From contig CAVXWP010000001.1 in assembly GCA_963765495.1 (NCBI GenBank), positions 832,001 to 896,000 on the forward strand: a stretch of DNA of 64,000 nucleotides, written 5' to 3'. Position numbers and translations under genes: made by a program. This DNA comes from Blastocatellia bacterium (GTDB taxonomy: Bacteria; Acidobacteriota; Blastocatellia; UBA7656). Under the pieces are notes generated by a model. It was not told the DNA's origin. It saw only the letters and a program-made list of their open reading frames with translations, and ran no database searches. Below, in pieces: positions 29,810 to 46,661 of this stretch (its first letter is position 1; every line of letters starts with the position of its first letter).

Positions 29810-32800
29810 ATGCCCTCGAAGAGCAAATTCCTCATAAACAGGCTGGATAAGGAACTCGATGTCGTCTGCCTCGAACAAGAAAGCATAACCATAGGCCGGC
29901 TTATCAGCAACGATCTTGTTTTGAACCACCGCGCCGTCTCGCGCACTCACGCCGGGATAAAAGAGATCGGCGGCGTCTTCTGGCTTTTTAATCTGTCGCT
30001 TTCAAACGGAACTTTGCTTGACGGCGAACTGGTGCATAAATCGCCGATTTCCGACGGGGATGTAGTGCAGATAGGCCCGTATCTGCTGCTGATGAATTGC
30101 CCCGATAATGCGATCTCCATAACCGTCGAGATGGAACTCGATGTCCACCCGCTCGACACTCAACCCAGGGCGCTCCAGGACCAGACCGTCCTGATAGCCA
30201 TCCCCTCTTCGCCCGATAAGCCGGCCAGGTTCGGCGCTAAGAAACTCATAACCGGCGGAACCCGACTGAGCAAAGTCATGCCCGCGATAGCGGCACAGGC
30301 GCTCGACCTCTACTGGGCCTTGCGACAGAGGGAGGCGGGGAAAATGTATGCCCGGACCCCGCTCCATCCGAGAGGCAACGAGAAGGTAGGCAAGATTCAA
30401 TTCAACTGGCGTCCGACGCTCGACCTGAGCCGGTTCAGCCGCGCGTCGCTCTTTGTCTGGGGCGCTCTGGTTGTCGCGCTGCTTTCTGTAGCAGCCTTCT
30501 TTGCTCATGCGAATGCGTATTCGCCGGGCGAATTGTCGGTCACTCACAGTTCCGCTTTCGTCTCTGAACGCAATATCGCTGTTCGCTCAAACAAGGGGGA
30601 CTGCGCGGGTTGTCACGGCGTAAAGCAGGGGATGCTGGATAAATGCATCAATTGTCATACGACGCCGGCCTTTCAATCGGCTCCGGGTTTTCAGCCCGCC
30701 ATATTCGATGCTCACAAACGCGCGCGGGTCGGCTGCACAGATTGCCACACGGAGCACGCGGGCGTGAAGCCGGAAGAAGGATTGATGAGCGCGGGGCTTT
30801 GTTCGAGCTGTCACAACGACGCTTATAAAATCAAGGCGGGCGAAAGGGCGGGCCAGATACTGGGCGAGCCGCACGGCGGCGGCATCGGTTACCCTGTCGT
30901 TGACGGCGTGTGGAAATGGAAGGGGTTATCGGCCGATTTGTGGGCCGCAAAGAACCTCTCGCCTTCGCTTGCCCAGGAGAGACCCGCAGACCAGTTTCAT
31001 CTGCTCCATATGAGGGGCAGGATGCAGGGTCTTGTGGGATGCACGGACTGTCATAAGGGAGATGTGAGCGCGAGCGAGGAGTTTCGAAAATCTCCCCGGG
31101 GCGAATGCGCCAAATGCCACGGGCTCGCGACGACCGAAGGCGGGCTCACGGTTGGAAAGCGAAATTGCTATACCTGCCACGTACAGCATCACAGGAATGA
31201 AACCTTCGACGCGCTGCTTGCCGCCGGAGCGAGCGAGACGTCTATCCGCGATTATCTCGCCAGATTGAATGCCGGGGAGAATCAAGCCGCTCGCTCAACG
31301 GCGAAGCCTGATAGACCTCTTGCGGGCAGCGGGGGAGCCGCCGCGATGCGCCAGAACCGGGAGGCTACGGGCTGGAGCGCGACTTCGAGTCTGGGCGCGT
31401 TGCCGTGGTATGGGTGGCTCGGACTGATTGCAGTCCTGCCCGTTGTGGGGCTTGTGCTGGCCTTTGCCGACACGGCCCGAAAAAAACGCATGCTGATAGA
31501 GGCGAGCCGCGAAGTGATCGAAACCGAGAAGGGCCATACTACGGGCTCGCTCGATCTGGAAAAACTGAAGGCCGAAGGCCCTACATACCCGCATCCGGTG
31601 ATTGATCCGGCCCTCTGCATAGGCTGCCATGCATGCGTAGAAGTATGCCCGCACGACGTGCTTACAATCGTCAACGGGATAGCCTCGCCCATCCACCCCG
31701 ATCAATGCATGGAAGACACCAGTTGCCAGGTCGAATGCCCTACAAATCCAAAGGCCTGCATAGTCCTCAATACGACAAAGAAGATTCCGCACCGCCTGAT
31801 CCCGGATCGCGACCGCGAATATATGACAAACATATTTGGGGTCTACCTGATTGGAGACGTATCGGGTGTGCCGTTGATCAAAAACGCGGCCAACGAAGGC
31901 GCGAAGGTCATAACCCATCTGGTCGAAGAGATGAGAAGAGAAAGGCCCGACCCGGCAGCCGAATACGATGTGGCGATCATAGGCATGGGGCCCGCCGGTC
32001 TTTCGGCGGCGATCACAGCGAAGCGGAATAATCTCAGGTATGTAGCCCTCGAACAGTCTAAGGTGCTGAGGACGATTCGAGCCTATCCGGCGGGCAAAGA
32101 ACTTCACTTCAAGCCCGACACCCTGAGGGCAGATGCCGGGATGGATGTTCCGCCTTCGGGTGAGAAGCGGGAGAAGAGATTGAAAGAGGTAGTGCTCGAC
32201 AACTGGCTGCGCGCCATCAAAGAAAACGATCTGGTGGTGAATGAAGACGAAACCTGCAAGGACATCAGGCGCGAAGGAAATATAATCTCTATCATCACGG
32301 AAAGAGGCGAAGAGAAAGAGGAGGTGGTTTACAGGGCGCGCAGGGCTGTTCTGGCCATAGGCAATCGTGGAGCGCCGCGAAAGCTGAATGTTACGGGCGA
32401 GGATTTGAAACTATATGTGATGCCCGATGATACGACCGCCGGGTTATGCCGGAAATGCGGTGCGCGAGGCCGCCCGGATGCGAGATTTTGCCCCGGTTGC
32501 GGGGCCGGTATCAGACCGGGCACAAAAGCGGTCTATCTTGACAACAGAGTTAAGTACAAGCTCGCGGACCCGGAATATTACTTCAACAAGAAATGCATGG
32601 TCGTTGGCGCGGGCAATTCGGCCATCGAAGCGGCTGTCGCCTTGAGCGGTTTTGAGCGAAAAGGTGAGCAGATTACTTTTAACGGGAGTAACGAAGTGAC
32701 TCTCTTAATCAGAAGTGATTTCAAGATAGACCTGAAGTTTGGCAACAAGATGAACATCTTTGATTGCATCGATGCGGGCCGGGTGAGGGTGATCTACAGG

Positions 32801-32956
32801 GCCGAGATTAAAGAGATCAAAGAGGGTGAAGTGGTCCTGAAAAGCACCGTGACCGGAGAAGAGATGCCGCCTCTGCCAAACGATTATGTCTTTGCATTGA
32901 TAGGAAGCGAAAAGCCTACAAAGTTTTTGCATCAACTGGGGATAAAGATAATTTGA
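29810..32956 (+). CDS. Membrane fusion protein: FHA - TM - multiheme cytochrome c - TM - ferredoxin - thioredoxin-reductase-like FAD/NAD(P) domain with zinc-ribbon insert
   Basis: IGR..VSRTHA..SNGT (FHA); seven CxxCH; CIGCHACVEVCP and CMEDTSCQVECP; GMGPAG; VVGAGNSAIE; CRKC..FCPGC. Confidence 0.8.
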   Translation: MPSKSKFLINRLDKELDVVCLEQESITIGRLISNDLVLNHRAVSRTHAGIKEIGGVFWLFNLSLSNGTLLDGELVHKSPISDGDVVQIGPYLLLMNCPDNAISITVEMELDVHPLDTQPRALQDQTVLIAIPSSPDKPARFGAKKLITGGTRLSKVMPAIAAQALDLYWALRQREAGKMYARTPLHPRGNEKVGKIQFNWRPTLDLSRFSRASLFVWGALVVALLSVAAFFAHANAYSPGELSVTHSSAFVSERNIAVRSNKGDCAGCHGVKQGMLDKCINCHTTPAFQSAPGFQPAIFDAHKRARVGCTDCHTEHAGVKPEEGLMSAGLCSSCHNDAYKIKAGERAGQILGEPHGGGIGYPVVDGVWKWKGLSADLWAAKNLSPSLAQERPADQFHLLHMRGRMQGLVGCTDCHKGDVSASEEFRKSPRGECAKCHGLATTEGGLTVGKRNCYTCHVQHHRNETFDALLAAGASETSIRDYLARLNAGENQAARSTAKPDRPLAGSGGAAAMRQNREATGWSATSSLGALPWYGWLGLIAVLPVVGLVLAFADTARKKRMLIEASREVIETEKGHTTGSLDLEKLKAEGPTYPHPVIDPALCIGCHACVEVCPHDVLTIVNGIASPIHPDQCMEDTSCQVECPTNPKACIVLNTTKKIPHRLIPDRDREYMTNIFGVYLIGDVSGVPLIKNAANEGAKVITHLVEEMRRERPDPAAEYDVAIIGMGPAGLSAAITAKRNNLRYVALEQSKVLRTIRAYPAGKELHFKPDTLRADAGMDVPPSGEKREKRLKEVVLDNWLRAIKENDLVVNEDETCKDIRREGNIISIITERGEEKEEVVYRARRAVLAIGNRGAPRKLNVTGEDLKLYVMPDDTTAGLCRKCGARGRPDARFCPGCGAGIRPGTKAVYLDNRVKYKLADPEYYFNKKCMVVGAGNSAIEAAVALSGFERKGEQITFNGSNEVTLLIRSDFKIDLKFGNKMNIFDCIDAGRVRVIYRAEIKEIKEGEVVLKSTVTGEEMPPLPNDYVFALIGSEKPTKFLHQLGIKII

Positions 32957-33117: not shown

Positions 33118-35073
33118 CTAATCTCCTCGTCGGGTCGCAACCCCGATGCGCCGCGCAAGATCGGCAAACCTCGGGTCCGGGCGCAGGCCATCGAAAATTG
33201 GGTCTGCTCCGATATATATGATCCTGTATGAACGCTCCTCGTATGCTTTTTCAAGCCATCTTAGCGTCTCATCTCTGTTGCCAAGCCCAATATGGATCAT
33301 CGCTATCTCGTAGGCCGGCGCAGCACCGCGCTTCGACTTTGTCTGCAACTCGTCGAGAACTCTCAAAGCTTCGTCTCTGTTGCCTGACATGGCATATGCG
33401 TATCCAAGCGATGCCTTGATCGGGGAACGATCTCCAATAAGGGCAACCGATTTCTCGAAGCTGGCGATGGCTTCTTCGTGCATCCCTTTTTGCACGTAGA
33501 CAAATCCGAGCGTGAAATGTGCCGCCGCGAAGTTTCGGTTCAAATCCAGTGTCTTTTGCAACTGCTCTATCGCCTGGTCGTACTGTCGGGCGAAGTAATG
33601 TATCCTTGCTTTGTCCCTGTTGATGATGAGTGAGAGAGGGTTGAGTTTTCTGGCCTGTTCCACCTCCCGCAACGCCTCTTCGATCCGTCCCGTCACCGCC
33701 AAGCAGTCGGCATACCACTGGCGCGCAGAGGCATAATTCGGATTGATCTCGATGGCGCGCTGGAACTCGTTTTCGGCGGCTGCCATGTCGTGATCGTAAG
33801 CCATCCTGACAAGCCCCAGCGAGGCATGGGCCTCAGCGAGATGGTCGTCGAGTTCCAGCGCGCGCATCGCTGCCGATCTCGCTTTGGGCATCACCGTACT
33901 TGCGGGCAGTCGAAGCCCTCCGCCAAGCACATAGCTGTCGGCAAGGCCCGCGTAAGCCAGCGCGTAAGTCGGGTCTTTGCCGAGCGCTTTTTCGAAATAC
34001 TCAATGCCTTTGCGCAGCCCTTCCTGACTTCTCTTATTCCAGAAGTAACGGCCTTTGAGATAGAGTTCATAAGCCTCGGTGTTGTGGGTGTAGCGTTTGG
34101 TCAGAAGCCCTCTTTCTTCGCCGCTCAATTCCAGTGTCAGCGCCCGCGTCACCTGTTCGCTTATCGAATCCTGCACGGCGAATATGTCCGTAAACTGCTC
34201 GTCGAACTTCTCCGCCCATAGCGTTTTGCCGTCGGGAACGCTTATGAGTTGAACGGTCACTCGAATTCGGGCGCCCAATCTTTGGACGCGACCGTCAAGC
34301 AGCGAGTCCACGCCAAGCTCGCGACCGACCTCAAGCAGATTCTGTCGGGGATCGTCATACCCACTGACGGCGCTCGTGGGGCAGATAGACATCTCCTTTA
34401 TGCGGCTCAGACCCGTTATGAGCGCGTCGGCCATACCCAGACCCAGAGACTCATCGCTTCCGTCATCGCTCATAGGTTTGAAAGGCAGCACGGCCAGCGA
34501 TCTCGGCTTCGCGGCAGGCGCGCGCTCGTTGGATTTGTCCGCGAAGAAACGATACGAGGCCCCGGCAACAAGCAATATCAGAAGGATGCCTGCGGCGGCA
34601 GCGATTCGGCGCGGCGTCAAGATAGCTTCTGGCGTAGTCGCTCTACTCGCTAATTGCGAAGTCTGTGCGGAGCGGTCTTCTTCCTCCTCGGTGATAATAC
34701 GCGACCTCGTGAAGCTCGCTACTATTAACCCGTCATCATTATCTGTCGAAATGCTAACCGGAGCCACAAAGCGATAGCCTCGCTTCGGCACAGTCTCTAT
34801 ATACCTGCTCTGGCCGGGCGTCTCGCCAAGAGCCTTTCTCAAAGTGGAAATGTTGCGGTTGAGATTGCCTTCTTCAACGACAGTATCGCGCCAGACCAGG
34901 CGCATCATTTCGTCCTTTTCAACTACCCGGCCCCGGTTTTCGACAAGCGCCAGAAGTATATCGAACACCTTTGGAGTCAGCGGCACCGTCTCTCCACCGC
35001 GCAGCAGAACCCGTTCGGTAGCATCTAACCAGTATTCATGGAATATGTATAAATGCTTTATTTGCTTGTTCAT
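33118..35073 (-). CDS. Winged-helix (OmpR/CadC-type) regulator with TM, TolB-like and TPR domains
   Basis: LTPKVFDILLALVE, EEGNLNRNISTLRKAL, IETVPKRGYRF, SLAVLPF, EAYELYLKGR, TPRs. Confidence 0.88.
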   Translation of the reverse strand: MNKQIKHLYIFHEYWLDATERVLLRGGETVPLTPKVFDILLALVENRGRVVEKDEMMRLVWRDTVVEEGNLNRNISTLRKALGETPGQSRYIETVPKRGYRFVAPVSISTDNDDGLIVASFTRSRIITEEEEDRSAQTSQLASRATTPEAILTPRRIAAAAGILLILLVAGASYRFFADKSNERAPAAKPRSLAVLPFKPMSDDGSDESLGLGMADALITGLSRIKEMSICPTSAVSGYDDPRQNLLEVGRELGVDSLLDGRVQRLGARIRVTVQLISVPDGKTLWAEKFDEQFTDIFAVQDSISEQVTRALTLELSGEERGLLTKRYTHNTEAYELYLKGRYFWNKRSQEGLRKGIEYFEKALGKDPTYALAYAGLADSYVLGGGLRLPASTVMPKARSAAMRALELDDHLAEAHASLGLVRMAYDHDMAAAENEFQRAIEINPNYASARQWYADCLAVTGRIEEALREVEQARKLNPLSLIINRDKARIHYFARQYDQAIEQLQKTLDLNRNFAAAHFTLGFVYVQKGMHEEAIASFEKSVALIGDRSPIKASLGYAYAMSGNRDEALRVLDELQTKSKRGAAPAYEIAMIHIGLGNRDETLRWLEKAYEERSYRIIYIGADPIFDGLRPDPRFADLARRIGVATRRGD

Positions 35074-35307: not shown

Positions 35308-35562
35308 GTGAAGAAAAAGCGCAAAACAGAGATCACTATAGAAACAGCGCGAGTCCTGGTAATAAAAAAATCAGGGAAATCCGTTTCGGCCTGGTGCCCG
35401 CAATGCTTGCAGCGTGTCGCAATGATCACGCCCGAACAGGCTATGGTAGTTGCGGGCGTCAACTGGCGCACGATATACCGCTGGGCTGAGGCCGGTAGTA
35501 TACACTCTACCGAAACCCCCGAAGGCTTTCTGCTCATCTGCCTCGATTCGCTCTCCCCATAA
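35308..35562 (+). CDS. Small CxxC / helix-turn-helix (excisionase/MerR-like) protein
   Basis: GGAG then GTG; WCPQC, TPEQA....GVNWRTIYRWAEAG.IH, ICLDS. Confidence 0.65.
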   Translation: MKKKRKTEITIETARVLVIKKSGKSVSAWCPQCLQRVAMITPEQAMVVAGVNWRTIYRWAEAGSIHSTETPEGFLLICLDSLSP

Positions 35563-35611
35563 TTTAAGAGGTTCGCATAATTTAAGAGGTTCGCATAATT
35601 TAAGAGGTTCG
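35558..35611. repeat. Perfect 18-bp tandem repeat x3
   Basis: CATAATTTAAGAGGTTCG x3, between the stop of the small HTH gene and the CHAT ATG. Confidence 0.95.
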
Positions 35612-35612
35612 A

Positions 35613-38600
35613 ATGAAAAGCAGATTTTCACTTCCAACAATCATTCGATTACCATTGATGATCAAGCGTCGAATTTGCCGGGCTCGATTCCAATTTATCC
35701 TCGCCTTCCGGCCCTGCTCGACCGGGGCCGCCTTCGCGTTGATTGCAGTTCTGCTTATAGGAGCGGCAACCGCGATAGCCGATTTGAAAAGCGCCGAACA
35801 GGCTCAAAGCGCTTCGCCCGATCTCAATCACTCCTATCTCGGCAAACTTGAGCCGGGTACAAGCATCAAGCGTGAGATCGCAGGTGGTAAGACACACTCA
35901 TATCGCGTCACGCTCGCATCAGATCAGTTTTTACGAGCCGTCATCCATCAACGTGATATTGATGTCAGTGTCAGACTGATCGGGCCGGATGGGATTCAGA
36001 TCACAGAGGCGAGAAACATCCTTGACACGGCGCGACCGGAGCGGATTTCTTTCGTGGCGGATAAATACGGCGATTACAGCCTGGAGGTGGTCGCAATAGG
36101 TAATGAAGAGGATGTGGGCAATTATGAAATGCGCGTCGAAGAGTTGCGAATCGCCACACCAGAAGACCGTAGTCTCACCGCCGCCGAGAAACTCTATCGG
36201 GAAGCAGAGCGGCTGCATGCGCAACCGAATCCGCGGTCGCGGCGCGAAGCCATAAAGAAATACGAACAGGCGCTACCGCTATGGCAGCAAGCCCGTGATC
36301 TGCGTGGGGAGGCCGACACGCTTCAGTATCTTTCGAACGCTTACTACTTGCTTGGTGAATCGGAAAAGGCGGTTGAATACCTCACCCGGGCACGTCCGCT
36401 CTATCGAGCCGCCGGGGACAGCCACGGAGAATCGCTGACCCTACAGGGGCTTGGTTTGATGAATCACCTGTCGGGTAACCTGCACAGGGCGCTCGAATAC
36501 TATAAGCAGGGGCTGGAGCTGCATAGAGAGCTCAGGGACAGATGGGAAGAAGCCGGGACGCTCAACAACATAGGCGGAGTTTATTCCTATATGGGAGAGC
36601 ACCAGAAGGCGCTCGAATACTATAAACTCTCGCTTCCCTTGCACCGGGATTTAAAGGATCAAAGGGGCGAGGCCGTCACGCTCAACAACATCGGCGAGGT
36701 TTATCGCATCCTGGGCGATAACCAGAGGGCGCTCTCATATTACGAGAAATCCTTGCCGCTCCGGCGGCGAGTGAAAGACCTTCGCGGGGAAGCTGTCACG
36801 CTCAATAATATAGGTCTGGTATACATGGCGATGGGCGAGTATCGCAAAGCCCTTGAGCGAATGGATGAATCATTGAAGCTTAAGCGCGAGGTGGGATACC
36901 GCTTCGGAGAAGCCTCCACGCTCAATGGTATTGGGGCCATCTATCATAAGCTGAACGACTACGAAAAGGCGCTTGAGATTCTCAACCAGGCGCTCGAATT
37001 GAGGCGGGCCGTGGGAGATCGCAGGGGAGAAGCCAATACTCTCTACACCCTCGGCTCGGTCTATTTCTCGATGGGCAAACCGGCCAGGGCAATGGAGTAT
37101 TTCAACCGGGCGCTGCCGTTGAGCAGGTCCGTCTGGGACCGCATCCTGGAGATGGCGATTCTTTACAGCATTGCCGACATCGAGCGCGAGCGGGACAACC
37201 TCCTTGAGGCCCGCTCGCGGGCCGATGAGGCGCTGGCAATCATCGAGTCATTGCGTTCGAATGTGGCGGGCCAGGAATTGCGCGAGTCCTTCTTTGCGTC
37301 AAAACAGAATCATTATGAGCTATACGTTGACGTGCTGATGCAACTTCACCATCAGAGCGGGTCCGACCGATATGACGTGAAAGCCTTCGAGGCAAGCGAA
37401 CGCGCCCGTGCTCGTTCTTTGCTGGATACGTTGAGCGAAGTTTGCGCCGGCATCCGTCAGGGGGTTGACCCTGCGCTATTTGAACGCGAGCGGAGATTAC
37501 AGCAACAACTAAATGGCAAAGAGGCGCTTCGAATGCAATTGCTCAGGCGCAAGAACGCCGAAAAGAAGATCGAGGCGATGGAGCGCGCGATCAACGACCT
37601 GCTCAATCAATATAGAGAAATCCGAACGCGAATACGAATAGAGAGCCCGCGCTACGCGGCGCTTTCCGACCCGCAGCCGCTCAACCTCGAAGAAGTCCAG
37701 CGTCTCGTTCTCGATGATGAAAGCCTCCTGCTTGAATACTGGCTTGGAGAGAAAAGGAGCTATCTGTGGGCTGTTACTACCTCTTCGATTACAGGCTACA
37801 CTCTGCCTGCGCGCGCTGAAATAGAATCTGCGACGCGGCGCGTTTACGAATTGCTTACGGCCCGCAACGAGCGCCCGAAGGGTGAAACCCCCAGACAGAG
37901 ACAATCGCGCGTAGCGAGAGCGGATGGTGAGTACATGGCAGCAGCCCGCCGCTTGAGCCGTATGCTGCTTGGGCCGGTTGCTGCTCGGCTCGGCAACAGA
38001 CGGCTGCTGATCGTAGGCGACGGCGCATTGCATTACTTACCTTTCGGGGCACTGCCTTTGCCACAGGTTCGGGAGGCGGCTGCCGTTGATAAACTTAAAG
38101 GCGGCAGAAAAGATGCGACCGGTTTATATAAGCCGCTGGTAATTGAACACGAAATAGTGACCCTCCCATCGGCTTCGGTGCTGGCAGTTCTCAGACGAGA
38201 AATAAACGGACGCAAGCCTGCTCCAAAGCTTGTGGCCGTGCTGGCCGATCCGGTATTCAGGAGCAACGATCCTCGCATAAATATCAAACCAGTAGAATCG
38301 GTGGACGATCCAATCAAGCGGAGCCGGACCACTACAGGATTGCAGGTTTCAAATTCGGAATCTGTTCGTCCGATCAACGAATCGGAGAAAAACAGCTTCA
38401 GACGGCTCCGCTTCAGCCGCCAGGAAGCCAATGCAATTATAGCCCTCGTCCCGGCAGAAAAGAGCCTCAAAGCGATTGACTTCGCCGCCAGTCACGCGAT
38501 GGCCATGGGAACTCAACTGGAAAAGTATCGCATTCTCCACTTCGCCACACACGGATTGCTCGATAGTCGTCACCCGGAGCTATCAGGGATCGTGCTCTCG

Positions 38601-38975
38601 CTCGTAGATGAACAGGGCCGTCCGCAGGATGGTTTCTTGAGATTACATGAAATCTACAACCTCAAGCTCAATGCCGACCTCGTTGTGTTGAGCGCGTGTC
38701 AGACGGCTCTGGGCAAAGAGATAAAAGGAGAGGGCCTTGTCGGGCTTACCCGAGGTTTCATGTACGCGGGAGCGCCTCGGGTGGTGGCGAGTCTCTGGAG
38801 CGTAGAAGACCGAGCTACGGCAGAACTGATGAAGCGATTTTATGAGGCGATGTTGAGCAAGGGCATGACGGGGGGGGCGGCGCTCAGGGCGGCGCAGGTG
38901 GAGTTGTGGAAAGAACGCCGGTGGCAATCGCCTTATTACTGGGCCGGATTCGTGCTTCAGGGAGAATGGAAATAA
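35613..38975 (+). CDS. PPC-TPR-CHAT (caspase-like) protease
   Basis: Hydrophobic N-terminal segment, PPC-like domain, repeated GEA.TLNNIG TPRs, ERARARSL, ILHFATHG and VVLSACQT (His/Cys dyad), SLWSV, PYYWAGF. Confidence 0.92.
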   Translation: MKSRFSLPTIIRLPLMIKRRICRARFQFILAFRPCSTGAAFALIAVLLIGAATAIADLKSAEQAQSASPDLNHSYLGKLEPGTSIKREIAGGKTHSYRVTLASDQFLRAVIHQRDIDVSVRLIGPDGIQITEARNILDTARPERISFVADKYGDYSLEVVAIGNEEDVGNYEMRVEELRIATPEDRSLTAAEKLYREAERLHAQPNPRSRREAIKKYEQALPLWQQARDLRGEADTLQYLSNAYYLLGESEKAVEYLTRARPLYRAAGDSHGESLTLQGLGLMNHLSGNLHRALEYYKQGLELHRELRDRWEEAGTLNNIGGVYSYMGEHQKALEYYKLSLPLHRDLKDQRGEAVTLNNIGEVYRILGDNQRALSYYEKSLPLRRRVKDLRGEAVTLNNIGLVYMAMGEYRKALERMDESLKLKREVGYRFGEASTLNGIGAIYHKLNDYEKALEILNQALELRRAVGDRRGEANTLYTLGSVYFSMGKPARAMEYFNRALPLSRSVWDRILEMAILYSIADIERERDNLLEARSRADEALAIIESLRSNVAGQELRESFFASKQNHYELYVDVLMQLHHQSGSDRYDVKAFEASERARARSLLDTLSEVCAGIRQGVDPALFERERRLQQQLNGKEALRMQLLRRKNAEKKIEAMERAINDLLNQYREIRTRIRIESPRYAALSDPQPLNLEEVQRLVLDDESLLLEYWLGEKRSYLWAVTTSSITGYTLPARAEIESATRRVYELLTARNERPKGETPRQRQSRVARADGEYMAAARRLSRMLLGPVAARLGNRRLLIVGDGALHYLPFGALPLPQVREAAAVDKLKGGRKDATGLYKPLVIEHEIVTLPSASVLAVLRREINGRKPAPKLVAVLADPVFRSNDPRINIKPVESVDDPIKRSRTTTGLQVSNSESVRPINESEKNSFRRLRFSRQEANAIIALVPAEKSLKAIDFAASHAMAMGTQLEKYRILHFATHGLLDSRHPELSGIVLSLVDEQGRPQDGFLRLHEIYNLKLNADLVVLSACQTALGKEIKGEGLVGLTRGFMYAGAPRVVASLWSVEDRATAELMKRFYEAMLSKGMTGGAALRAAQVELWKERRWQSPYYWAGFVLQGEWK

Positions 38976-39124
38976 AGATCGGCGCGCGGTGGCCGATGGT
39001 TAAGCATATCGTAGAGTTAAATTGATCTCTTGCCGATTCCGTATTTGAGATCTCAGATCTCAAATCTCAGATGAGCGAAAGTGAAATATATCAATCTCTG
39101 ACCACCGACCGCCGATCACTGCTT

Positions 39125-39150
39125 TGAAATGTTTTCGCAAATTTTGACAG
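39125..39150 (+). promoter_or_regulatory. ECF-type promoter motif copy 1 (upstream of the sigma gene)
   Basis: TGAAA-tgttttcgcaaatttt-GACAG. Confidence 0.65.
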
Positions 39151-39219
39151 CTACGGGTGAGGCGGTACGGGAAGACTGCGCGCGGCCAGGGCGCGTTGTG
39201 TTAATGGAGTATTGGAGAC

Positions 39220-39804
39220 GTGAGTAAGGCTGTGCTGCAAGAAAAAAAATGGGTCTTAACGCAACGCGCGTTCGACAAGTTTCTCGCCTGCCTAGACTCG
39301 GATCGGGAGCGAGCGGGACGGCAGTACGAGATGATCCGCTCTAAACTCATAAGCTTTTTCGAATGGCGCAACTCGCCGTTTCCCGAAGATCACGCCGATG
39401 AAGCAATCAACAGAGTCGTCAGAAAGATTGATGAAGGAGTTCAATTGCGCGATCCTTCCACTTACGTCTTTGGCATCGCCCGTATGCTACTTCTTGAGAT
39501 CGCAAAAGAGCAGCACAAGAAATGGGCAGCAACCGATCATCTGGCCAGGTCTGTCCCTCCTCTTGAACTTGCGGATGGATCCGAATCGAAAGTTGAGTGC
39601 TTGAGACGTTGCCTCGCGGAGTTGCCCACAGAGAGCCGCGAGTTGATCACACAGTATTATCAGGGAGAGAGACGGGAGAAGATAATAAACAGAAGACGTT
39701 TGACCGAAAGACTTGCAATACCCATCAATGCGTTGAGGATCAAGGCTTGCAGGATAAGGGAAAAGCTCGCAGGTTGCCTCGATCATTGTATGGAAAAGCG
39801 TTGA
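39220..39804 (+). CDS. ECF-type RNA polymerase sigma factor (acidobacterial type)
   Basis: LISFFEWR..PEDHADEAINRV region 2, YVFGIAR, CLAELP..RELI..YY, LAI..NALRIKACRIR region 4; GGAG then GTG. Confidence 0.82.
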   Translation: MSKAVLQEKKWVLTQRAFDKFLACLDSDRERAGRQYEMIRSKLISFFEWRNSPFPEDHADEAINRVVRKIDEGVQLRDPSTYVFGIARMLLLEIAKEQHKKWAATDHLARSVPPLELADGSESKVECLRRCLAELPTESRELITQYYQGERREKIINRRRLTERLAIPINALRIKACRIREKLAGCLDHCMEKR

Positions 39805-39832
39805 GCAGGGTAAGGGACGAAAGGCCGAAGAG

Positions 39833-39858
39833 TGAAACGGATTTGAGATTCCTGTCAG
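39833..39858 (+). promoter_or_regulatory. ECF-type promoter motif copy 2 (upstream of the anti-sigma gene)
   Basis: TGAAA-cggatttgagattcct-GTCAG. Confidence 0.55.
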
Positions 39859-39884
39859 TACCGGATAGGCGAGGGTTGAGCGAA

Positions 39885-40916
39885 ATGGACCGACAAACGG
39901 ATGAAAAACTGATAGCCCGATTTCTGCTGGGAAATTTGGCAGAGCAGGATCGCGTTGCTCTCGAAGAGCGATTCTTTGCCGATGACGATTTCTACTCGCA
40001 AATGCTCGCTATCCAGGAAGAGTTAGCCGACGATTATGTGTGCGGCGATCTTTCTGAAAGCGAGCGCGAGCAGTTTGAGCGGCGTTTCTTAACATCTCCT
40101 TACAGGCGAAGGAGAGTAGAATTCGCTGCGACCCTGGCAAAGGCGCTCCCAGAAATGCGTGATGAACAGGCGAAATCTGCTACGAGCGCGTGGGACGTTT
40201 CCTGGTGGCGCGCCCCGCTTGGATTCCTGCGAACGCAAAGCCCGGCTTTCACTCTGGCCATTTATGCGGCGATATTCTTGTTGTTGTTCGGGATTACGTG
40301 GCTTGAGATTGAGAACCGGCGGTTGGACGCGCAGCTTGAACGAGCGCGTGACGAGCAAGGCCGGTTTTCAAAGCAGGCTCAGGCGGATCGTGAAGAGTTC
40401 GAGCGAGAAGAGAAAAAGCGCCGTCAGCAGATGATTGAGCTGCAATCTCAAAGAGACGAAAAGGATGCGAAGCTTCGAGACGAACGGCGCAGGGTTGAGG
40501 AGATTGAGCGAAGAGCGGCAAGTGAACATCGTCGAAATGAGCTCCGTCCGTCGGACAACCTCGTCTCGTTCGCGCTTCTTCCAGGACTTGTAAGGGGAAG
40601 CGGCAATGAACCCGCAGATGAGCCTGAGAAGATCGTTATTCCACCAAAGACAAACTCTATCAGGCTGCAACTCGAACTCGATAAGGAAGAGAATTATCGG
40701 AGTTATCGCACCGAACTGCGAACAGCGGGCGGCAATCTTGTATGGAGCCAGACTCTACTGGCTCCTAAACAGAGCGGCGGCTCGCAGGTTGTGCCTGTAA
40801 CTCTTCCGGCCAGTATTCTCTCTCAGGGCGAATATGAAGTGACGCTTGCGGGAGTAAACCGGGATGGCGCCCGCGAAGTCATAAGCTATTATTACTTTAT
40901 CGCGCTGAAGAGGTAG
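39885..40916 (+). CDS. Putative membrane anti-sigma factor (cytoplasmic helical domain - TM - coiled coil - beta domain)
   Basis: RFLLGNL..E.RFF..EELADDYV.G.L..ER..FE N-terminus, one TM, charged coiled coil, FALLPGLVRG C-terminal domain; directly after the ECF sigma. Confidence 0.72.
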   Translation: MDRQTDEKLIARFLLGNLAEQDRVALEERFFADDDFYSQMLAIQEELADDYVCGDLSESEREQFERRFLTSPYRRRRVEFAATLAKALPEMRDEQAKSATSAWDVSWWRAPLGFLRTQSPAFTLAIYAAIFLLLFGITWLEIENRRLDAQLERARDEQGRFSKQAQADREEFEREEKKRRQQMIELQSQRDEKDAKLRDERRRVEEIERRAASEHRRNELRPSDNLVSFALLPGLVRGSGNEPADEPEKIVIPPKTNSIRLQLELDKEENYRSYRTELRTAGGNLVWSQTLLAPKQSGGSQVVPVTLPASILSQGEYEVTLAGVNRDGAREVISYYYFIALKR

Positions 40917-41240: not shown

Positions 41241-41450
41241 ATGAAGAGCGTTTTCAGATCAAGACGCATTTCAAGGACTCTCGCGGCGTTTCTATTCGTT
41301 TCTGCGCTCTCTCTTTTTGGAGTGACCGCGCCTGTGGCATCAGCTCAGAGCTTCCCCGATCTTACCTTTTCTGCTGCCGGGCAGAATTGCAGCAAGTTCC
41401 GAAATCAACCCATCGCCCTTATAAGCACAAGGGCGTGCCGGATCGAATGA
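41241..41450 (+). CDS. Small secreted protein or truncated remnant
   Basis: AAGGGG RBS, clear signal peptide ending ASA, short mature part with two Cys. Confidence 0.5.
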   Translation: MKSVFRSRRISRTLAAFLFVSALSLFGVTAPVASAQSFPDLTFSAAGQNCSKFRNQPIALISTRACRIE

Positions 41451-41463
41451 GACGAGGAGGGTT

Positions 41464-42246
41464 ATGAAAAGTGCGCTCAAGACAATTGCGATAAGAACTT
41501 TGCCGACCGCTCTTGTGACGCTCGGTCTCGCAATACAAATCTGCGCCAACACAAGGACTATTGAATCCCGTTTCGCGTTGTCGGCCGATATCCGAAGCGA
41601 ATTCAGCACACGGTTTAATGCCCTCAGCCCCGGGAGGATCCTGATGGAAGGCACATGGACTGCCGCAGGTCCCGGCTCCGTTTCTGTTGCCTTGAAACTT
41701 ATGCTGATTCGACCCGACGGGACCGAAGCGGCCCGCAAGCAGGGTCCGGCTCCGCTCAGGCTCGAATATCGTGTATCTGAACAGGAGATAGATTCCTTTA
41801 TCGCCAGAGGCCGGACCTTTTGGACCATCAAGGTCATAAACAGCGCCGATGCGAACAGGCGAGAGGTGGGGGGCAAACTGAGAGTGACGGTTCCCACATT
41901 GAGCCGCAAAGTCTTAGACACGCAATTCACACTGCTCGGGTCGAGCAACGCTCAGGAAATACCTTTCCTTGTCCCCGCGCCCGGAAAGATAGTTGTAGGA
42001 GCCGAATGGGCAGGCGATCCGCTATCGGCCTCCGAACAGCAAGGAGTGTCAATAACGGTCAGTTTGATCCATCCCGGCCAGGCGAGGACTTACGCGCGGA
42101 GGCAGGGCACAAGTCCTCTCAGGATAGAGCATCAGGTGACGGATCGCGAACTCGATAAGGGGACCCGTTGGATTGTCAGGGTCCAGAACGATAATCAGGT
42201 GAAGATAAAAGGCAGGGTCAAGGTTACATACACGCCAAGCCTTTAA
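41464..42246 (+). CDS. Secreted hypothetical protein with two tandem homologous beta domains
   Basis: GAGGAGG RBS, signal-like N-terminus, internal duplication (LIRPD..ARKQGPAPLRLEY / LIHPG..ARRQGTSPLRIEH). Confidence 0.75.
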   Translation: MKSALKTIAIRTLPTALVTLGLAIQICANTRTIESRFALSADIRSEFSTRFNALSPGRILMEGTWTAAGPGSVSVALKLMLIRPDGTEAARKQGPAPLRLEYRVSEQEIDSFIARGRTFWTIKVINSADANRREVGGKLRVTVPTLSRKVLDTQFTLLGSSNAQEIPFLVPAPGKIVVGAEWAGDPLSASEQQGVSITVSLIHPGQARTYARRQGTSPLRIEHQVTDRELDKGTRWIVRVQNDNQVKIKGRVKVTYTPSL

Positions 42247-42309
42247 GGTGAAACCGCTCCGCCGCTTTTTTACCGGCGGGTAGATTTTGATCAAAGAAAG
42301 GAGAACGCA

Positions 42310-43128
42310 ATGAAACGCATTATGATCTGCATGCCGGTATTGCTTGCTGTATTCCTGCTGAATGCAGCCTACTCGATCCCGTGTACTGCCGCACTCGCTG
42401 AATCAAGGATGTCGGCCTTTCAGCTCTCATCGGGGGGGTCATCGGGTTCATGCCCGGATCTGCCCGCGCAGGTTGTTCAACTCGATGTTGCTCCCGCTTT
42501 GCTTGCGTCCAAGTACAGCATAAAGACCGCCTGGAGCGCGAACGCGCCTCAGTGCTTCACTATAAGGCGGTTCATAGTAAAAGCGAATATAACATTCGCA
42601 AACGGCCAGACAAAAAGCATACAAAAGTCGCTCTCCCCTTCTCAGACAAGCTTTCAGGGAGATGTGCCCGGCGCGGGCTCGCTGCCCAGGTTTGCCGATG
42701 TCACCATCACGGCGATAGCGACCGCCCCCGCATCGGGGATCGTGGCTTCCCCGTCAGGCATAGGACTTTCCGGAAATTGCCCGAGCATACCTGTGCATAT
42801 CACGCAGACCCTCTTCAACGGTCTTCAGCCTATTCCCAACCGCCCCGGCGATTATTATCCCAAGGTCAAAGTGGTCTGGAATGTAAACGGGTTGCTTCCG
42901 TGCATTGCGGTCAAGGAGTTCAAATTGACCGTCAGAGTAGGGGCTGATGGAAAAGAGCATCAAAGGACGGTGACTCTTCCCAGCAATCAACTCTCGGCAG
43001 ATGTGGTCATAACATCTGTGGCGGTAGGCTCAGGTTTTACGCCCCAACAGGTCAAATCACAGATCCAGGCTTCGGGCACGGCCCGCATAGAAGGAACCGC
43101 CCTGAAGAAAATACGGATCAACCGATGA
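42310..43128 (+). CDS. Secreted hypothetical protein with two tandem Cys-paired beta domains
   Basis: AAGGAG RBS, signal peptide, repeats SCPDLP..W..PQCF.I..F / NCPSIP..W..LPCI.V..F. Confidence 0.75.
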   Translation: MKRIMICMPVLLAVFLLNAAYSIPCTAALAESRMSAFQLSSGGSSGSCPDLPAQVVQLDVAPALLASKYSIKTAWSANAPQCFTIRRFIVKANITFANGQTKSIQKSLSPSQTSFQGDVPGAGSLPRFADVTITAIATAPASGIVASPSGIGLSGNCPSIPVHITQTLFNGLQPIPNRPGDYYPKVKVVWNVNGLLPCIAVKEFKLTVRVGADGKEHQRTVTLPSNQLSADVVITSVAVGSGFTPQQVKSQIQASGTARIEGTALKKIRINR

Positions 43129-43292
43129 TGCTCTCCCGCCGTTCGCGCGCCGATGGCAGGCGAGCATCTTACCGCAAACTCTGGATGTGACCGTTTCCCG
43201 GACTCTACCAATGTCGTTCAACAGAGTGCCGTCACAAAGACGGTCGTAGTCAGAGAAACGTTCGGACAGCCCTGTGCTGTAGGCAATTTTCG

Positions 43293-43318
43293 TGAAATGT
43301 TTTTTCATAATCTGCCAG
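43293..43318 (+). promoter_or_regulatory. ECF-type promoter motif copy 4
   Basis: TGAAA-tgttttttcataatct-GCCAG. Confidence 0.65.
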
Positions 43319-43423
43319 GAAGAGTGATGTGAGAAATCAAGACATCAACGGATTAAAGAATCGCCCGCCAGGCGAGTCGCTCATCCGGGCCGAGAATTTT
43401 CCAGCAAAGAAAGGAGTAACGAG

Positions 43424-44218
43424 ATGAAGAACCAGTCTATCTTCAAGTCAGCTATAACGTTAACCGCAACAATGTTGTTTATGATTATGCTTGGAGCAAG
43501 CCAGAGCGCCAGCGCGCAATTCGGGCAGAAACCGGACTTGAGGGTCGCCAGAATTGATACGCCGGGAGGGCTCTGCGTCGGAAACAAGAGCAAGATCAGG
43601 GCTACCATAAACAACTCGCAGAACATCGGCGTCAGACAAGCCTTCAAGGTCCTGCTCAACATACAGTTTCCCAACGGCGGGCAGGGAGCTTACGAGGCGA
43701 CAATAAGCGGCATAGGACCCAACGGCAATCAAGCCGCCTGGTTCCAAAACGTCAGCCTGCCAAGCGCCGGGTATTATGCGATGAAGGTGTTTGTTGACCC
43801 GAAGAATAACATTGCCGAAACTGTCGAGAGCAACAATGACAGAGGTCAAGGTTTCAATGTGACGAAGTTCTGCGACGCGCCCACTCCTGTGCAGACATAC
43901 ACACTCACAGTGAAAGTCCACGAGAGCGGCACCTGGAGCGGGGGACAGGGGCAATGGATTCAGGGCGTAACGGTTCTTCTCGAAGACCTGGCCTCCCCGC
44001 ACCAATTCAGTTCTCGCACGGCGACGACCAATAGCCAGGGGGTGGCGACCTTTAATAACGTGCCGCCCAGCAAGCCGGGGAAAAACTTCAAGATCACGGC
44101 TTCGAAATCGAGATGCGCGCAGGTGTCCGGCAACCCCGCGCTTGCTCCCTCAATCAAACAGTTCAAAATGGGCGCATACAACTCGACGCAGCATCTGGCC
44201 CTCGACTGCGATCAGTGA
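43424..44218 (+). CDS. Secreted CARDB-domain protein with a C-terminal prealbumin/CnaB-like domain
   Basis: AAGGAG RBS, signal peptide, PDLRV...VDPKNNIAETVESNN (CARDB), GVTVLL..ATTNSQGVATFNNVP. Confidence 0.78.
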   Translation: MKNQSIFKSAITLTATMLFMIMLGASQSASAQFGQKPDLRVARIDTPGGLCVGNKSKIRATINNSQNIGVRQAFKVLLNIQFPNGGQGAYEATISGIGPNGNQAAWFQNVSLPSAGYYAMKVFVDPKNNIAETVESNNDRGQGFNVTKFCDAPTPVQTYTLTVKVHESGTWSGGQGQWIQGVTVLLEDLASPHQFSSRTATTNSQGVATFNNVPPSKPGKNFKITASKSRCAQVSGNPALAPSIKQFKMGAYNSTQHLALDCDQ

Positions 44219-44362
44219 TCTTCACTCAAAGAGTCTCACCACGGTTGCGAGAATCAACCGAAAGGCAAAATCACTTCAGCACAGGGTTGGCTCTCGCAAC
44301 TGAAACCAAAACAATGAGGCCGGACCAGGAACACCGGCTTCATAAAGGCGAGGGAAATAGAG

Positions 44363-46561
44363 ATGTTTAGAAAAACGAGATCAATCCCGCGCAGGCCGGG
44401 CACGATCCTGGCCCTCAGCCTGGCGACTTTGCTCGCCTGTGCCAACGCTGTCTTGCTTGCCCGGGCCGATTCACAGGATATTAGCGCCACAGCCAGCTTC
44501 TCAGATAAAGGATCGCTCGCTCTCGGCGAAAGGCTTTCCTTCAGCCTCAATCGCCCTCTCCAACCCGATGAGGGGGTGCTTGCAGCCCTCATCGGCTCGA
44601 CAGATATAACCGCCCTGTCGAGCGTGGATAAAAACGGTCTGAGTTATGATACGGCGATACTGCCTTTGCCTGCGGGTGAAACCGTGGCGGTCCTCTATCT
44701 GGTCACGCCAGACAACCGGTGGACAGAGATAGCCCGATTCCCTCTGCGCATCGAGCCCGACATCGCCGCAGCGCCCGTCACCCAACAGCAACCCCCCGCA
44801 GATTCCACTCAGCAGTCCGTAAATGTTCAAAAGAAATGGGGATTTGACAGAGCCAACATAACTCCATCGCTGACCATAGGGATGAAGTCACAGTTTGCAG
44901 AAAAAGCGTTCCCCGACACAAGCGCTTCCGAGCGGCCCACTTATAATGACCTCACATTGCAGGGTAGCCTTCAAACCGACATCGCTCGCGGGGCTTTTAA
45001 CTCGCAAACTCAATTCGATATCGTAGGCTCAAGCTTTCGAAAGGAAGCGATCCGTTTCGATCAACTGGGCGATGCCGCCCCTCATGTAGACCTGTCGAGT
45101 TACCTTGTACAGTTCCAGGCGGGCAAAGCCAAAGTGCAGGTAGGTCATGTGGCATTCGGCGCGAATCGCCATCTCATCAACAGCTTTTCGAGCCGTGGCA
45201 TAACGGTTACCTTTCCCGTCACTTCGCGCGCGGACTTTTCGCTCGCGGCCATGAACGGTACGAGCATAGTCGGCTGGAGCAACTTCTTCGGTCTGAATCG
45301 TCGCAAGCATCAGATCATAAGCGGCGCTTTCGGATATGAGATCATCCCAAGCCGCCCGGGCGCGCTCAGAATCGAGACCTCGATAATGCACGGGTCGGTT
45401 CTTCCCTTGAGCAACTTCAATCAGGGAGTCGTAAACGACGCGGAGCAGAGCAAGGGGGTGAGCGTGCGCGTTGTGGCAAGCGACAAGACCGAGCGTTTTC
45501 GCCTCGATGGCGGAATGGCCCGAAGCCGCTTCAATAACCCCGCCGATCCTTTGCTCCAGCAAGGACTCAATATCGTTCCGGTTCGCGAGACGGCTCGCAA
45601 CGCGCGCTACCTGGACGCAAGCTACCACATATTGCGCAATCTCCCCTTGAGTGCATCAAAGAACGTCAATCTCACCTTAAATTATCGCCACGAGAGGGTG
45701 GCTCCATTGTTTCGCAGCGTGGCGGCCTTTACGCAGGCTGATCGGTTCGACAATCAATTCGAGATCGTCAGCGGCATCGGCGAAATCATGGCTACCTTCG
45801 CTCATGGCCGGTCCAACGATAATCTCGATGACATTGCTTCGATCCTCAAGACTTTCACACGGCGCACGGGCCTCATTTTGGGCGTGCCGCTTGGCTCGCT
45901 CTTTGGCGATCAGGCGAGCCCTTCGCCCTGGCTTCCGAGAGTCTCATACAATTTTGACCGAACGCATCAGTTCGGCAAGGCACTTCCTGTAAACGGCGGC
46001 TTCGATAGCGCGAGCCAGATACCCGATCAGATCAGCACAAATCAGAGCCTTCTCGCCGAGTGGCAATTCGAGAAGTGGCGCTTCGGTTATCGCATCAATC
46101 ATTCGTTTCAAAATAACCGGCAGCCGGGAAGAGAGCTTGCCGATCTGAAAAATTTCATTCACGGTTTCACGTTCGGCGTGACGCCTGTTCCGGCTTTCGA
46201 TTTGAGTTTCGACCTCGGCAGGGAAAGCGCCGATAACAGAGAACAAAATCGCACTGATAACACTCTTCGCATAGGCTCGACAATCAACTGGCGAATGACT
46301 CAAAAAACCGCTCTTGCCGCGACCGTTTCAACCACTCTGGCCGGAGACGTTGCTGATACAAGCCGCAGTCGCAATGCCGAGCTTGACTTGCAATGGTCTT
46401 ACAGGTTCGACATGGAAAAGAGCCGGTTCAGAAAGATCAGCGGCCAGTTCTTTATCAGGTATGCGAACCGCTACGCGAGGATGCGAGACAGGTTGTTAGG
46501 ATTCAGTAACCTGACGAAGATCCAAACGCTCAATACTGGAATCAGTTTTACCTTTTTCTAA
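44363..46561 (+). CDS. Putative outer-membrane beta-barrel protein with an N-terminal periplasmic domain
   Basis: Signal peptide, many alternating amphipathic strands, C-terminal TGISFTFF BAM-type signal. Confidence 0.7.
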   Translation: MFRKTRSIPRRPGTILALSLATLLACANAVLLARADSQDISATASFSDKGSLALGERLSFSLNRPLQPDEGVLAALIGSTDITALSSVDKNGLSYDTAILPLPAGETVAVLYLVTPDNRWTEIARFPLRIEPDIAAAPVTQQQPPADSTQQSVNVQKKWGFDRANITPSLTIGMKSQFAEKAFPDTSASERPTYNDLTLQGSLQTDIARGAFNSQTQFDIVGSSFRKEAIRFDQLGDAAPHVDLSSYLVQFQAGKAKVQVGHVAFGANRHLINSFSSRGITVTFPVTSRADFSLAAMNGTSIVGWSNFFGLNRRKHQIISGAFGYEIIPSRPGALRIETSIMHGSVLPLSNFNQGVVNDAEQSKGVSVRVVASDKTERFRLDGGMARSRFNNPADPLLQQGLNIVPVRETARNARYLDASYHILRNLPLSASKNVNLTLNYRHERVAPLFRSVAAFTQADRFDNQFEIVSGIGEIMATFAHGRSNDNLDDIASILKTFTRRTGLILGVPLGSLFGDQASPSPWLPRVSYNFDRTHQFGKALPVNGGFDSASQIPDQISTNQSLLAEWQFEKWRFGYRINHSFQNNRQPGRELADLKNFIHGFTFGVTPVPAFDLSFDLGRESADNREQNRTDNTLRIGSTINWRMTQKTALAATVSTTLAGDVADTSRSRNAELDLQWSYRFDMEKSRFRKISGQFFIRYANRYARMRDRLLGFSNLTKIQTLNTGISFTFF

Positions 46562-46661
46562 GCGCCTCATTCTAAGCGCCCCTGATTTTCGATTTGAGAT
46601 TTGAAATCTGGATTCGGGGGTTAGAGATGAGCGAATCAAGACACGCAGCGAGGTTAAGATT

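Follow-up and report, generated by a model that had tools for sequence, protein, structure and literature searches.

A split TPR-CHAT protease, sigma factor and membrane anti-sigma factor cassette in Acidobacteriota that follows the proposed logic of the DdvA/DdvS switch

In regulated intramembrane proteolysis of the RseA/DegS/RseP type, the outer part of a single-pass anti-sigma factor is removed before site-2 cleavage. The only studied periplasmic TPR-CHAT protein that is tied to a sigma factor, DdvA of Myxococcus xanthus with its partner DdvS, has been interpreted along these lines: in the accessible part of the published account, DdvA is a transmembrane anti-sigma factor with a zinc-bound (CHCC) cytoplasmic domain and a periplasmic TPR-CHAT part, it is dimeric, and its active site is incomplete and without the three-helix motif (PMC11506125). 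Its authors proposed that CHAT cuts the linker in trans as a site-1 step before RseP, with validation awaiting the signal (PMC11506125); because DdvA unites protease and substrate in a single chain whose signal is not known, such cleavage lay beyond their test. According to the same text, proteins like DdvA were found in no other groups than Myxococcota and a single Comamonas (PMC11506125), and the DdvA/DdvS pair is described as controlling a defence island of cyclic-oligonucleotide-based (CBASS) and CRISPR-Cas immunity. Other described associations, again as given in the accessible parts of the sources, are the type III-E craspase, which comprises Csx29 (TPR-CHAT), Csx30 and a sigma factor (PMC10028731), and the extracytoplasmic function (ECF) sigma group ECF54, which has CHAT, subtilase and carboxypeptidase genes nearby and for which proteolytic control was proposed (PMC8999054, PMC7826278). 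Here we analyze a cassette of three genes, encoding a CHAT protease, a divergent ECF-type sigma factor and a membrane anti-sigma factor, at positions 35613-40916 of a 64,000-nucleotide stretch (the window) from a Blastocatellia bacterium of the Acidobacteriota. An initial interpretation made from the letters alone, which we call the sequence-only reading, had singled out this cassette as a protease-controlled signalling system.

The CHAT/sigma/anti-sigma trio is a real module, and we read it as a split, two-protein version of the DdvA/DdvS-type switch. We put the probability at roughly one half that the three genes form one signalling module in which the protease cuts the outer part of the anti-sigma factor. 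The observed basis for this reading is the domain content of the proteins, an intact catalytic dyad, gene linkage that is conserved in two orders, natural fusions, and the conservation of one loop in the anti-sigma factor.

Conservation of the trio across Acidobacteriota had been proposed as a test, and the linkage data, together with the fusions, bear it out. The anti-sigma factor was matched in 64 of 401 sampled Acidobacteriota genomes. We examined 36 split-type anti-sigma loci, hand-picked as the best full-length matches and usually several per genome; each locus consisted of ±8 kb around the anti-sigma gene and was scanned with hidden Markov models (HMMs) built from the family. The family sigma gene adjoins the anti-sigma gene in all 36 loci, and a CHAT gene lies within ±8 kb in 25 (13 of 20 in a first batch, 12 of 16 in a second), mostly abutting the pair. 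Two gene orders occur, CHAT-sigma-antisigma, as in the window, and sigma-antisigma-CHAT. Because the window's genome holds 13 strong CHAT genes in 7.3 Mb, a random 17-kb stretch should, as a rough estimate, contain one about 3-4% of the time, and by this estimate the adjacency is far above chance. The same genome carries three split cassettes, the window's included, and one fusion. One split paralogue (contig C6, 30175-35408) has the order of the window, another (C8, 174627-178841) has diverged further and lacks the PPC-like domain, and the fused cassette (C2, 136885-140523) encodes a 1212-aa protein made up of anti-sigma N-domain, transmembrane helix, TPRs and CHAT, with the sigma gene directly upstream. 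A chance neighbourhood of three unrelated genes, for which only the 11 CHAT-less loci speak, is contradicted by the counts (25 of 36 loci linked, four cassettes in one genome, and fusions in seven genomes), and we regard it as extremely improbable.

Seven of the 401 genomes, the window's own counted, contain open reading frames of 1176-1222 aa in which the N-part of the fused form is matched over its full length. In each of the five fused loci inspected (four fetched loci and C2), anti-sigma N-domain, transmembrane helix, TPR and CHAT follow one another and the family sigma gene lies directly upstream. The fusions are known from this genome search; a word-based search of a large protein database for longer, fused forms returned none, which is weak evidence. 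We then placed the loci on a sigma tree of 42 rows, from which L040 and L067 were left out for split or doubtful sigma reading frames and on which L063 was labelled CHAT-less in error. Fused and split forms are interleaved on this tree: the 5 fused rows require 4 changes of label, of which at least 2 are imposed by well-supported branches. This interleaving, together with the scatter of CHAT-less loci considered below, implies that fusion or fission, and loss of linkage, took place more than once. Pairwise distances of the three proteins were also correlated in Mantel tests on 18 complete trios, for sigma versus anti-sigma (r 0.58, matched in 0 of 2000 permutations), sigma versus CHAT (r 0.39, 15 of 2000) and anti-sigma versus CHAT (r 0.41, 6 of 2000).

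These gene arrangements could also be read with the protease as the output, such that the sigma/anti-sigma pair would respond to some other input and its autoregulated operon would include the CHAT gene, the product of which would be secreted as an effector protease against envelope or foreign proteins. CHAT often heads a closely spaced CHAT-sigma-antisigma row, as in a co-regulated operon; secreted and outer-membrane proteins are encoded downstream of the cassette; and reviews of ECF genomic context warn, in the text accessible, that a neighbouring gene can be either a regulator or a target (PMC7826278). Against this reading, linkage persists although the gene order is inverted, and it is difficult to see why TPR-CHAT should have been fused repeatedly to the anti-sigma N-domain if its gene were no more than a target; we consider this scenario quite unlikely.

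The protease gene (35613-38975; all features of the cassette are on the + strand) encodes 1120 aa with the architecture PPC-like/TPR/CHAT, as judged from Pfam, an AlphaFold model and Foldseek, and the product is predicted to be exported. The three reading frames and the intact CHAT His and Cys motifs named in the sequence-only reading are all present. The CHAT caspase-like domain (residues 704-1120; 37722-38972) matches Pfam CHAT (PF12770) at E 4.3e-70 and 236.9 bits (cut-off 24) over residues 777-1118, and it bears the motifs HFATHG (His980, 38550-38552) and LSACQT (Cys1029, 38697-38699); both residues are unchanged in 20 of 20 aligned orthologues, and the dyad is also intact in the fused paralogue. 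The TPR array, too, was correctly recognized: it spans residues 183-550 in about nine repeats (36159-37262), with matches to TPR_12, TPR_1 and many related Pfam families over residues ~200-510 and 18 regular helices in the model. A helical middle region (residues 554-698; 37272-37706), seen in the model and conserved among orthologues as a 'MID' HMM, connects TPR to CHAT. The model, for which the input alignment consisted of 20 orthologues, has a mean predicted local distance difference test (pLDDT) score of 81.8 and a predicted template modelling score of 0.72, with three loops of low confidence within the CHAT domain. Among full-length Foldseek matches, defined as those with at least 850 aligned columns, are DdvA (8rw5, E 8.3e-15, 1006 columns; 8rot), human separase and craspase Csx29, while the shorter matches ranking above them are plain TPR proteins; the template modelling scores against the three are low (0.2-0.38) because domain orientations differ. 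By these full-length alignments the protein has the TPR-CHAT architecture of the separase/craspase/DdvA type. A profile search of the CHAT half against the PDB found only separase, at E ~0.6.

At its N-terminus (residues 1-61; 35613-35795) the protease has a basic stretch followed by a hydrophobic helix, predicted from hydropathy, the model and orthologues to be a signal peptide or signal anchor. Windows of 19 residues with a Kyte-Doolittle mean above 1.6 begin at residues 28-43, the model shows a basic unstructured start and then a helix at residues 37-61, and a candidate A-I-A/D cleavage site can be read after the helix; the hydrophobic N-terminus reported earlier is thus real. The PPC-like domain reported with it stands in part. 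Residues 73-180 (35829-36152) form a confidently modelled beta-sandwich of nine strands (pLDDT mostly 71-92), a family HMM for the domain matches most split-type CHAT orthologues, and in ESM features 24 of the 30 nearest named clusters belong to the PPC set with a score of 0.91, a range in which chance matches occur. As Pfam PPC (PF04151) has no match in the protein at E ≤ 0.1 while the ESM features favour PPC, the label is only plausible.

The second gene (39220-39804) encodes a divergent ECF-type sigma factor of 194 aa with a GTG start. Its likeness to ECF factors is seen mainly at the level of the family. As a single sequence the protein stays below curated cut-offs, scoring 40.3 bits (3e-10) against NCBIfam TIGR02989 (cut-off 124.55) and 19.1 bits (7.7e-4) against TIGR02937 (cut-off 42.9), with no Pfam sigma family at E 0.01. 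A profile of 19 family members searched against the PDB gave nine matches, all nine of them ECF sigma structures, the best being SigL at 1.8e-4; Sigma70_r4_2 is matched by 12 of the 19 members and Sigma70_r2 by 2 (E ≤ 0.1). At least 1339 related clusters exist in a large protein set, where the source names are sigma24 or sigma-70 family. Four cysteines, Cys127, Cys131, Cys186 and Cys190, are invariant in 19 of 19 aligned sigma factors and form two CxxxC pairs that flank sigma-4; their codons lie within 39598-39789 of the window. Given that the anti-sigma factor is without the usual zinc ligands (see below), the four cysteines suggest that a metal or redox site may reside on the sigma factor itself.

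The third gene (39885-40916) encodes the single-pass anti-sigma factor, a protein of 343 aa with 71 homologues. Its start is most likely ATG 39885, judging from orthologue alignment and a GAGGG ribosome site, and not the listed reading-frame start at 39597. The cytoplasmic anti-sigma domain (residues 1-95; 39885-40169) is ZAS-like and zinc-less. No Pfam family was matched by the window's own sequence, and a profile search against the PDB yielded only transmembrane or coiled-coil noise and chain 3hug_B at E 0.28; the relation to ZAS domains comes from relatives, of which 42 of 65 full-length members match zf-HC2 at E ≤ 0.1 (best 1.9e-6). The window's domain has no His/Cys zinc ligands, and none of 146 diverse representatives contains the zinc motif HxxxCxxC. 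The family comprises 4993 representatives (50% identity, E ≤ 1e-30). One hydrophobic span, evident from hydropathy and sequence, forms the transmembrane helix (about residues 119-141; 40239-40307). The sequence-only reading had described a single-pass protein with an outer domain starting FALLPGLVRGSG; the single span is confirmed, but the outer part begins further N-terminal, with a charged coiled-coil-like stretch of ~80 residues (about residues 142-222; 40308-40550, from sequence and alignment), and FALLPGLVRGSG marks the point, at about residue 226, where the C-terminal beta-sandwich starts. This immunoglobulin (Ig)-like outer domain (residues 226-343; 40560-40913) is modelled at pLDDT 87.8, and its structural neighbours are only generic Ig- or fibronectin type III-like domains (best Z 8.7).

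Whether such a protease could reach the anti-sigma factor depends on compartment. The anti-sigma domain must be cytoplasmic in order to hold a sigma factor, which places the coiled coil and the Ig-like domain outside. On the protease side, N-terminal hydrophobic segments are present in most aligned CHAT orthologues, the fusions carry TPR-CHAT C-terminal to their single transmembrane helix, and in DdvA the solved arrangement, as the accessible text describes it, has TPR-CHAT beyond a single transmembrane helix in the periplasm (PMC11506125). The window's protease is therefore probably exported, and it is predicted to share the periplasm with the outer domain of the anti-sigma factor, in line with what had been suggested. 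A site-2 protease family, Peptidase_M50, is also encoded in the genome.

Within the Ig-like domain one loop stands out. The motif L-x-P-G-L-x-R-G-S (residues 231-239; 40575-40601) lies, according to the model, in the connection between strands 1 and 2, and among 66 anti-sigma factors its positions are conserved as follows: L231 in 64, P233 in 58, G234 in 61, R237 in 64 and G238 in 42. In a broader set of 147, made up of the window's protein and 146 representatives at 50% identity, Arg237 (40593-40595) is kept in 144. The candidate site near LVR/GS named in the sequence-only reading falls on exactly this Arg, within the conserved loop. The residues that follow Arg237 vary (G, D, S, E), and the Arg alone is fixed. 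We therefore rejected non-enzymatic self-cleavage of the SEA or FoxR type at the loop. A comparable motif, [F/L]-x-Y-[A/S]-P-x4-R-[G/A], is present in all five fused proteins, close to the membrane on its outer side. At P1, metacaspases and orthocaspases favour Arg or Lys. For separase, a TPR-CHAT relative, the cut falls after Arg (PMC11506125, accessible part). Arg237 is the best candidate for a cleavage or contact site. A complex prediction of CHAT residues 242-1120 with the anti-sigma outer domain, an input from which the PPC-like domain and first TPRs were omitted owing to a size limit, scored 0.00 in two runs without controls and is evidence neither way.

The membrane-proximal motif seen in the fused proteins, R-P-x-E-x-R ... 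Y-A-P-x4-R-G, recurs in short anti-sigma-like frames of 320-327 aa (G310:C218:53386-56251 and G291:C35:4419-5735), and again in nearby frames of 1078 and 1096 aa; these may be intermediate split forms.

The dyad and the loop bear most directly on an explanation in which the exported TPR-CHAT protein does not cut its partner at all. In that scenario it would be a co-receptor or scaffold of the anti-sigma factor that signals by binding or release, site-1 cleavage would be performed by another protease or by none, and the dyad would serve self-processing or another substrate. Physical coupling rather than cleavage is what linkage and fusions demonstrate, both the TPR array and the PPC-like domain are of a kind used for binding, the CHAT site of DdvA is itself described, in the accessible text, as incomplete and resting (PMC11506125), and other periplasmic proteases (S41, M16) adjoin some CHAT-less family members. 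Invariance of the dyad in all 20 orthologues and the fused paralogue is nevertheless unexpected for a pure scaffold, and a nearly invariant Arg in a conserved inter-strand loop would suit a protease site. We consider a non-cutting role unlikely, though it is the alternative we take most seriously.

Under the cleavage reading, the switch would work as follows. The zinc-less ZAS-like cytoplasmic domain of the single-pass anti-sigma factor would bind the sigma factor and hold it at the membrane, while in the periplasm the coiled coil and Ig-like domain of the anti-sigma factor would meet the exported PPC-like/TPR/CHAT protease. A signal would be read by the TPR and/or PPC-like parts of the protease, and the His980-Cys1029 dyad would then cut the outer part of the anti-sigma factor, most likely after Arg237 in the loop P-G-L-x-R-G. 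The shortened anti-sigma factor would become a substrate of the site-2 protease, and the sigma factor would be released to act on its presumed regulon. The protease had also been called ligand-activated, for which nothing speaks beyond the presence of TPR and PPC-like domains. Taken together, the observation behind the sequence-only reading is confirmed, and its interpretation is partly supported.

Several points weigh against this mechanism and account for the even odds we give it. Even for DdvA, CHAT cleavage is, in the accessible account, a proposal (PMC11506125). In 11 of the 36 loci no CHAT gene lies within the fetched stretch, two of which (L059 and L065) end at a contig edge. On the sigma tree the CHAT-less loci form no clade and are scattered (8 changes for 10 rows), a pattern that fits loss or relocation of linkage and equally a looser partnership. 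Some of the CHAT-less pairs have a peptidase (S41 or M16) or a Ser/Thr kinase as their neighbour (L038:4913-6613, L048:6673-8406, L039:9893-11749). When the loop was read in six CHAT-less loci the Arg was kept in five, and the Arg is therefore independent of an adjacent CHAT gene; Arg237 could be a structural or docking residue and not P1. The model is confident (pLDDT 91) for the 10-residue block in which the greater part of the motif lies, and the drop to a mean of 53 comes in the next block, which is mostly a 5-residue insert of the window's own protein that few relatives share. The Mantel correlations are confounded by shared genome ancestry. The single-sequence score of the sigma factor is under every curated cut-off. 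Finally, enumeration of dyads (5-mer, 14-19 nt gap, 4-mer) and k-mers in 44 upstream regions found no common promoter motif, the best dyad occurring in 6 sequences compared with 4-6 in shuffles.

More tentatively, and with less confidence than in the cleavage reading itself, we suggest that the cassette represents a very large, unstudied family of zinc-less anti-sigma factors and four-Cys sigma factors that are switched in trans by a dedicated periplasmic caspase-like protease, which would cut after one invariant Arg of the P-G-L-x-R-G loop in an Ig-like sensor domain, with fused and split forms repeatedly interconverted. If this is true, caspase-type site-1 proteolysis would be a general and ancient route of transmembrane signalling in soil bacteria and not a myxobacterial curiosity, and the split form would supply the enzyme-substrate pair needed to prove the DdvA mechanism.

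The surroundings of the cassette contain further features. A perfect tandem repeat of three 18-bp copies (35558-35611, +; 3.0 copies at 100% in Tandem Repeats Finder) immediately precedes the start codon of the CHAT gene; the stop codon context of a small upstream reading frame and the CHAT ribosome site, AAGAGG, are both contained in every copy, and the 18-mer is absent elsewhere in the window's genome. The repeat may be a recent local triplication or a translation signal of variable copy number. The small reading frame itself (35308-35562, +; 84 aa, with a CxxC pair and a weak match to the helix-turn-helix family HTH_17, E 0.004) abuts the CHAT gene and has six further copies elsewhere in the genome. 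It is probably outside the module, since only L037, of 40 fetched loci that comprise 36 split and 4 fused ones, has one near the cassette. A regulator with Trans_reg_C (winged-helix) and TPR domains (33118-35073, −) is divergent from the cassette; a homologue of 39% identity stands beside a cassette in L062 only, and this gene was likewise rejected as part of the module (1 of 40 loci). Further upstream, 29810-32956 (+) encodes an unusual 1048-aa fusion of FHA, cytochrome c3/c7-like, 4Fe-4S ferredoxin and pyridine-nucleotide-disulphide oxidoreductase domains.

Downstream, a run of genes for signal-bearing proteins of unassigned family (41241-47918, +) encodes products of 69, 260 and 272 aa, a CARDB protein, and products of 732 and 418 aa. 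The 732-aa protein has a C-terminal Phe and resembles a porin family faintly, below significance (Pfam BBP2, E 0.027); the 732-aa and 418-aa pair is also found beside the cassette in L031, L033 and L042, with a second copy on contig C7. The run is a candidate regulon or partner of the module. Its first reading frame (69 aa, 41241-41450), which has a signal-like N-terminus, was discarded as a conserved part because no homologue is present in the 40 fetched loci; a signal-like small reading frame adjoins the pair in only 3 of 36 loci, and these are mutually unrelated. Elsewhere in the genome there is a second kind of CHAT cassette (C15:9258-14315, C9:798402-803155 and C2:401895-406104), consisting of a Sigma70_r4_2 reading frame, a protein of ~205-250 aa with a zinc-finger-like anti-sigma start, and a CHAT protein of 951-962 aa; the N-terminus of the latter is without a hydrophobic segment, and the protein is likely cytoplasmic. 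About 9 of the 13 strong CHAT genes of the genome lie within 8 kb of a sigma gene.

How the cassette relates to described systems can be considered in light of the above. The sequence-only reading had presented it as the best candidate for an undescribed system in the window and had cited Csx29/Csx30 for comparison. The system is, however, not undescribed: the Myxococcus DdvA/DdvS pair, with its periplasmic TPR-CHAT and with site-1-like CHAT cleavage already proposed (PMC11506125, accessible part), stands much nearer to the cassette than the cytoplasmic type III-E proteins do. A literature search on CHAT, ECF and anti-sigma factors returned DdvA/DdvS, craspase and a review, and by title or abstract start none presented a split, exported CHAT protease with an anti-sigma factor. 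Like craspase, as far as described, the window has a TPR-CHAT protease that is genetically tied to a sigma-factor regulator and has a similar fold, Csx29 being among the Foldseek matches; but Csx29 is cytoplasmic, RNA-guided and bound to Cas7-11, whereas the window's protease is predicted to be exported and its candidate substrate is a membrane anti-sigma factor. No cas family was found among Pfam matches of the eight flanking reading frames scanned, a scan that included no dedicated search for Cas7-11. With ECF54, in the accessible descriptions, the cassette shares recurrent CHAT-domain neighbours of an ECF sigma group, yet ECF54 is actinobacterial and without an anti-sigma factor as described, in contrast to the anti-sigma gene in all 36 loci here. 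With RseA/DegS/RseP the cassette has in common a single-pass anti-sigma factor and an M50 protease in the genome, but its candidate site-1 enzyme is a caspase-like Cys protease encoded beside the substrate and not a PDZ serine protease.

The likeness to DdvA/DdvS extends furthest. As in the accessible accounts of that system (PMC11506125, PMC6061681), an ECF-type sigma factor is paired with a single-pass anti-sigma factor that has a cytoplasmic N-terminal domain of the ZAS type, a layout seen here in the sigma adjacency (36 of 36), the zf-HC2 matches (42 of 65) and the one transmembrane span; a separase/craspase-type TPR-CHAT with a His-Cys dyad lies in the periplasm (predicted in the window); and the mechanism proposed is the same, with CHAT as the site-1 step ahead of RseP. 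The fused layout of DdvA also occurs, in paralogue C2 and six other sampled genomes. The window's protease differs in being a separate, exported (predicted) protein with an additional PPC-like domain, its anti-sigma factor bears its own coiled coil and Ig-like outer domain, zinc ligands are found in 0 of 146 family members whereas DdvA binds zinc through CHCC, the sigma factor has four invariant Cys, and the host belongs to the Acidobacteriota. No sequence similarity to the N-part of DdvA or to DdvS was detected, and the fused N-part had no matches in the PDB; we therefore regard the cassette as a variant of the same kind and not as a member of the DdvA family. Pfam matches of flanking reading frames and PADLOC showed no CBASS, CRISPR or other defence families near the cassette, and a defence role was set aside, given that PADLOC produced only generic TPR matches.

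The main value of the cassette is that its split layout makes the DdvA hypothesis directly testable. Enzyme and substrate are encoded by two genes, the candidate site Arg237 is sharp, and several paralogous copies exist per genome, so co-expression with dyad and Arg mutants can settle whether caspase-like site-1 cleavage takes place. The analysis also outlines a large family of sigma/anti-sigma pairs that is scarcely recognized by standard profiles. The logic of the module is that of DdvA/DdvS; it differs in the split form, the PPC-like domain, an Ig-like domain in the outer part of the anti-sigma factor, the missing zinc ligands, the four-Cys sigma factor, the absence of defence genes nearby, and the phylum, by which a switch of the DdvA/DdvS kind is extended from Myxococcota to Acidobacteriota.

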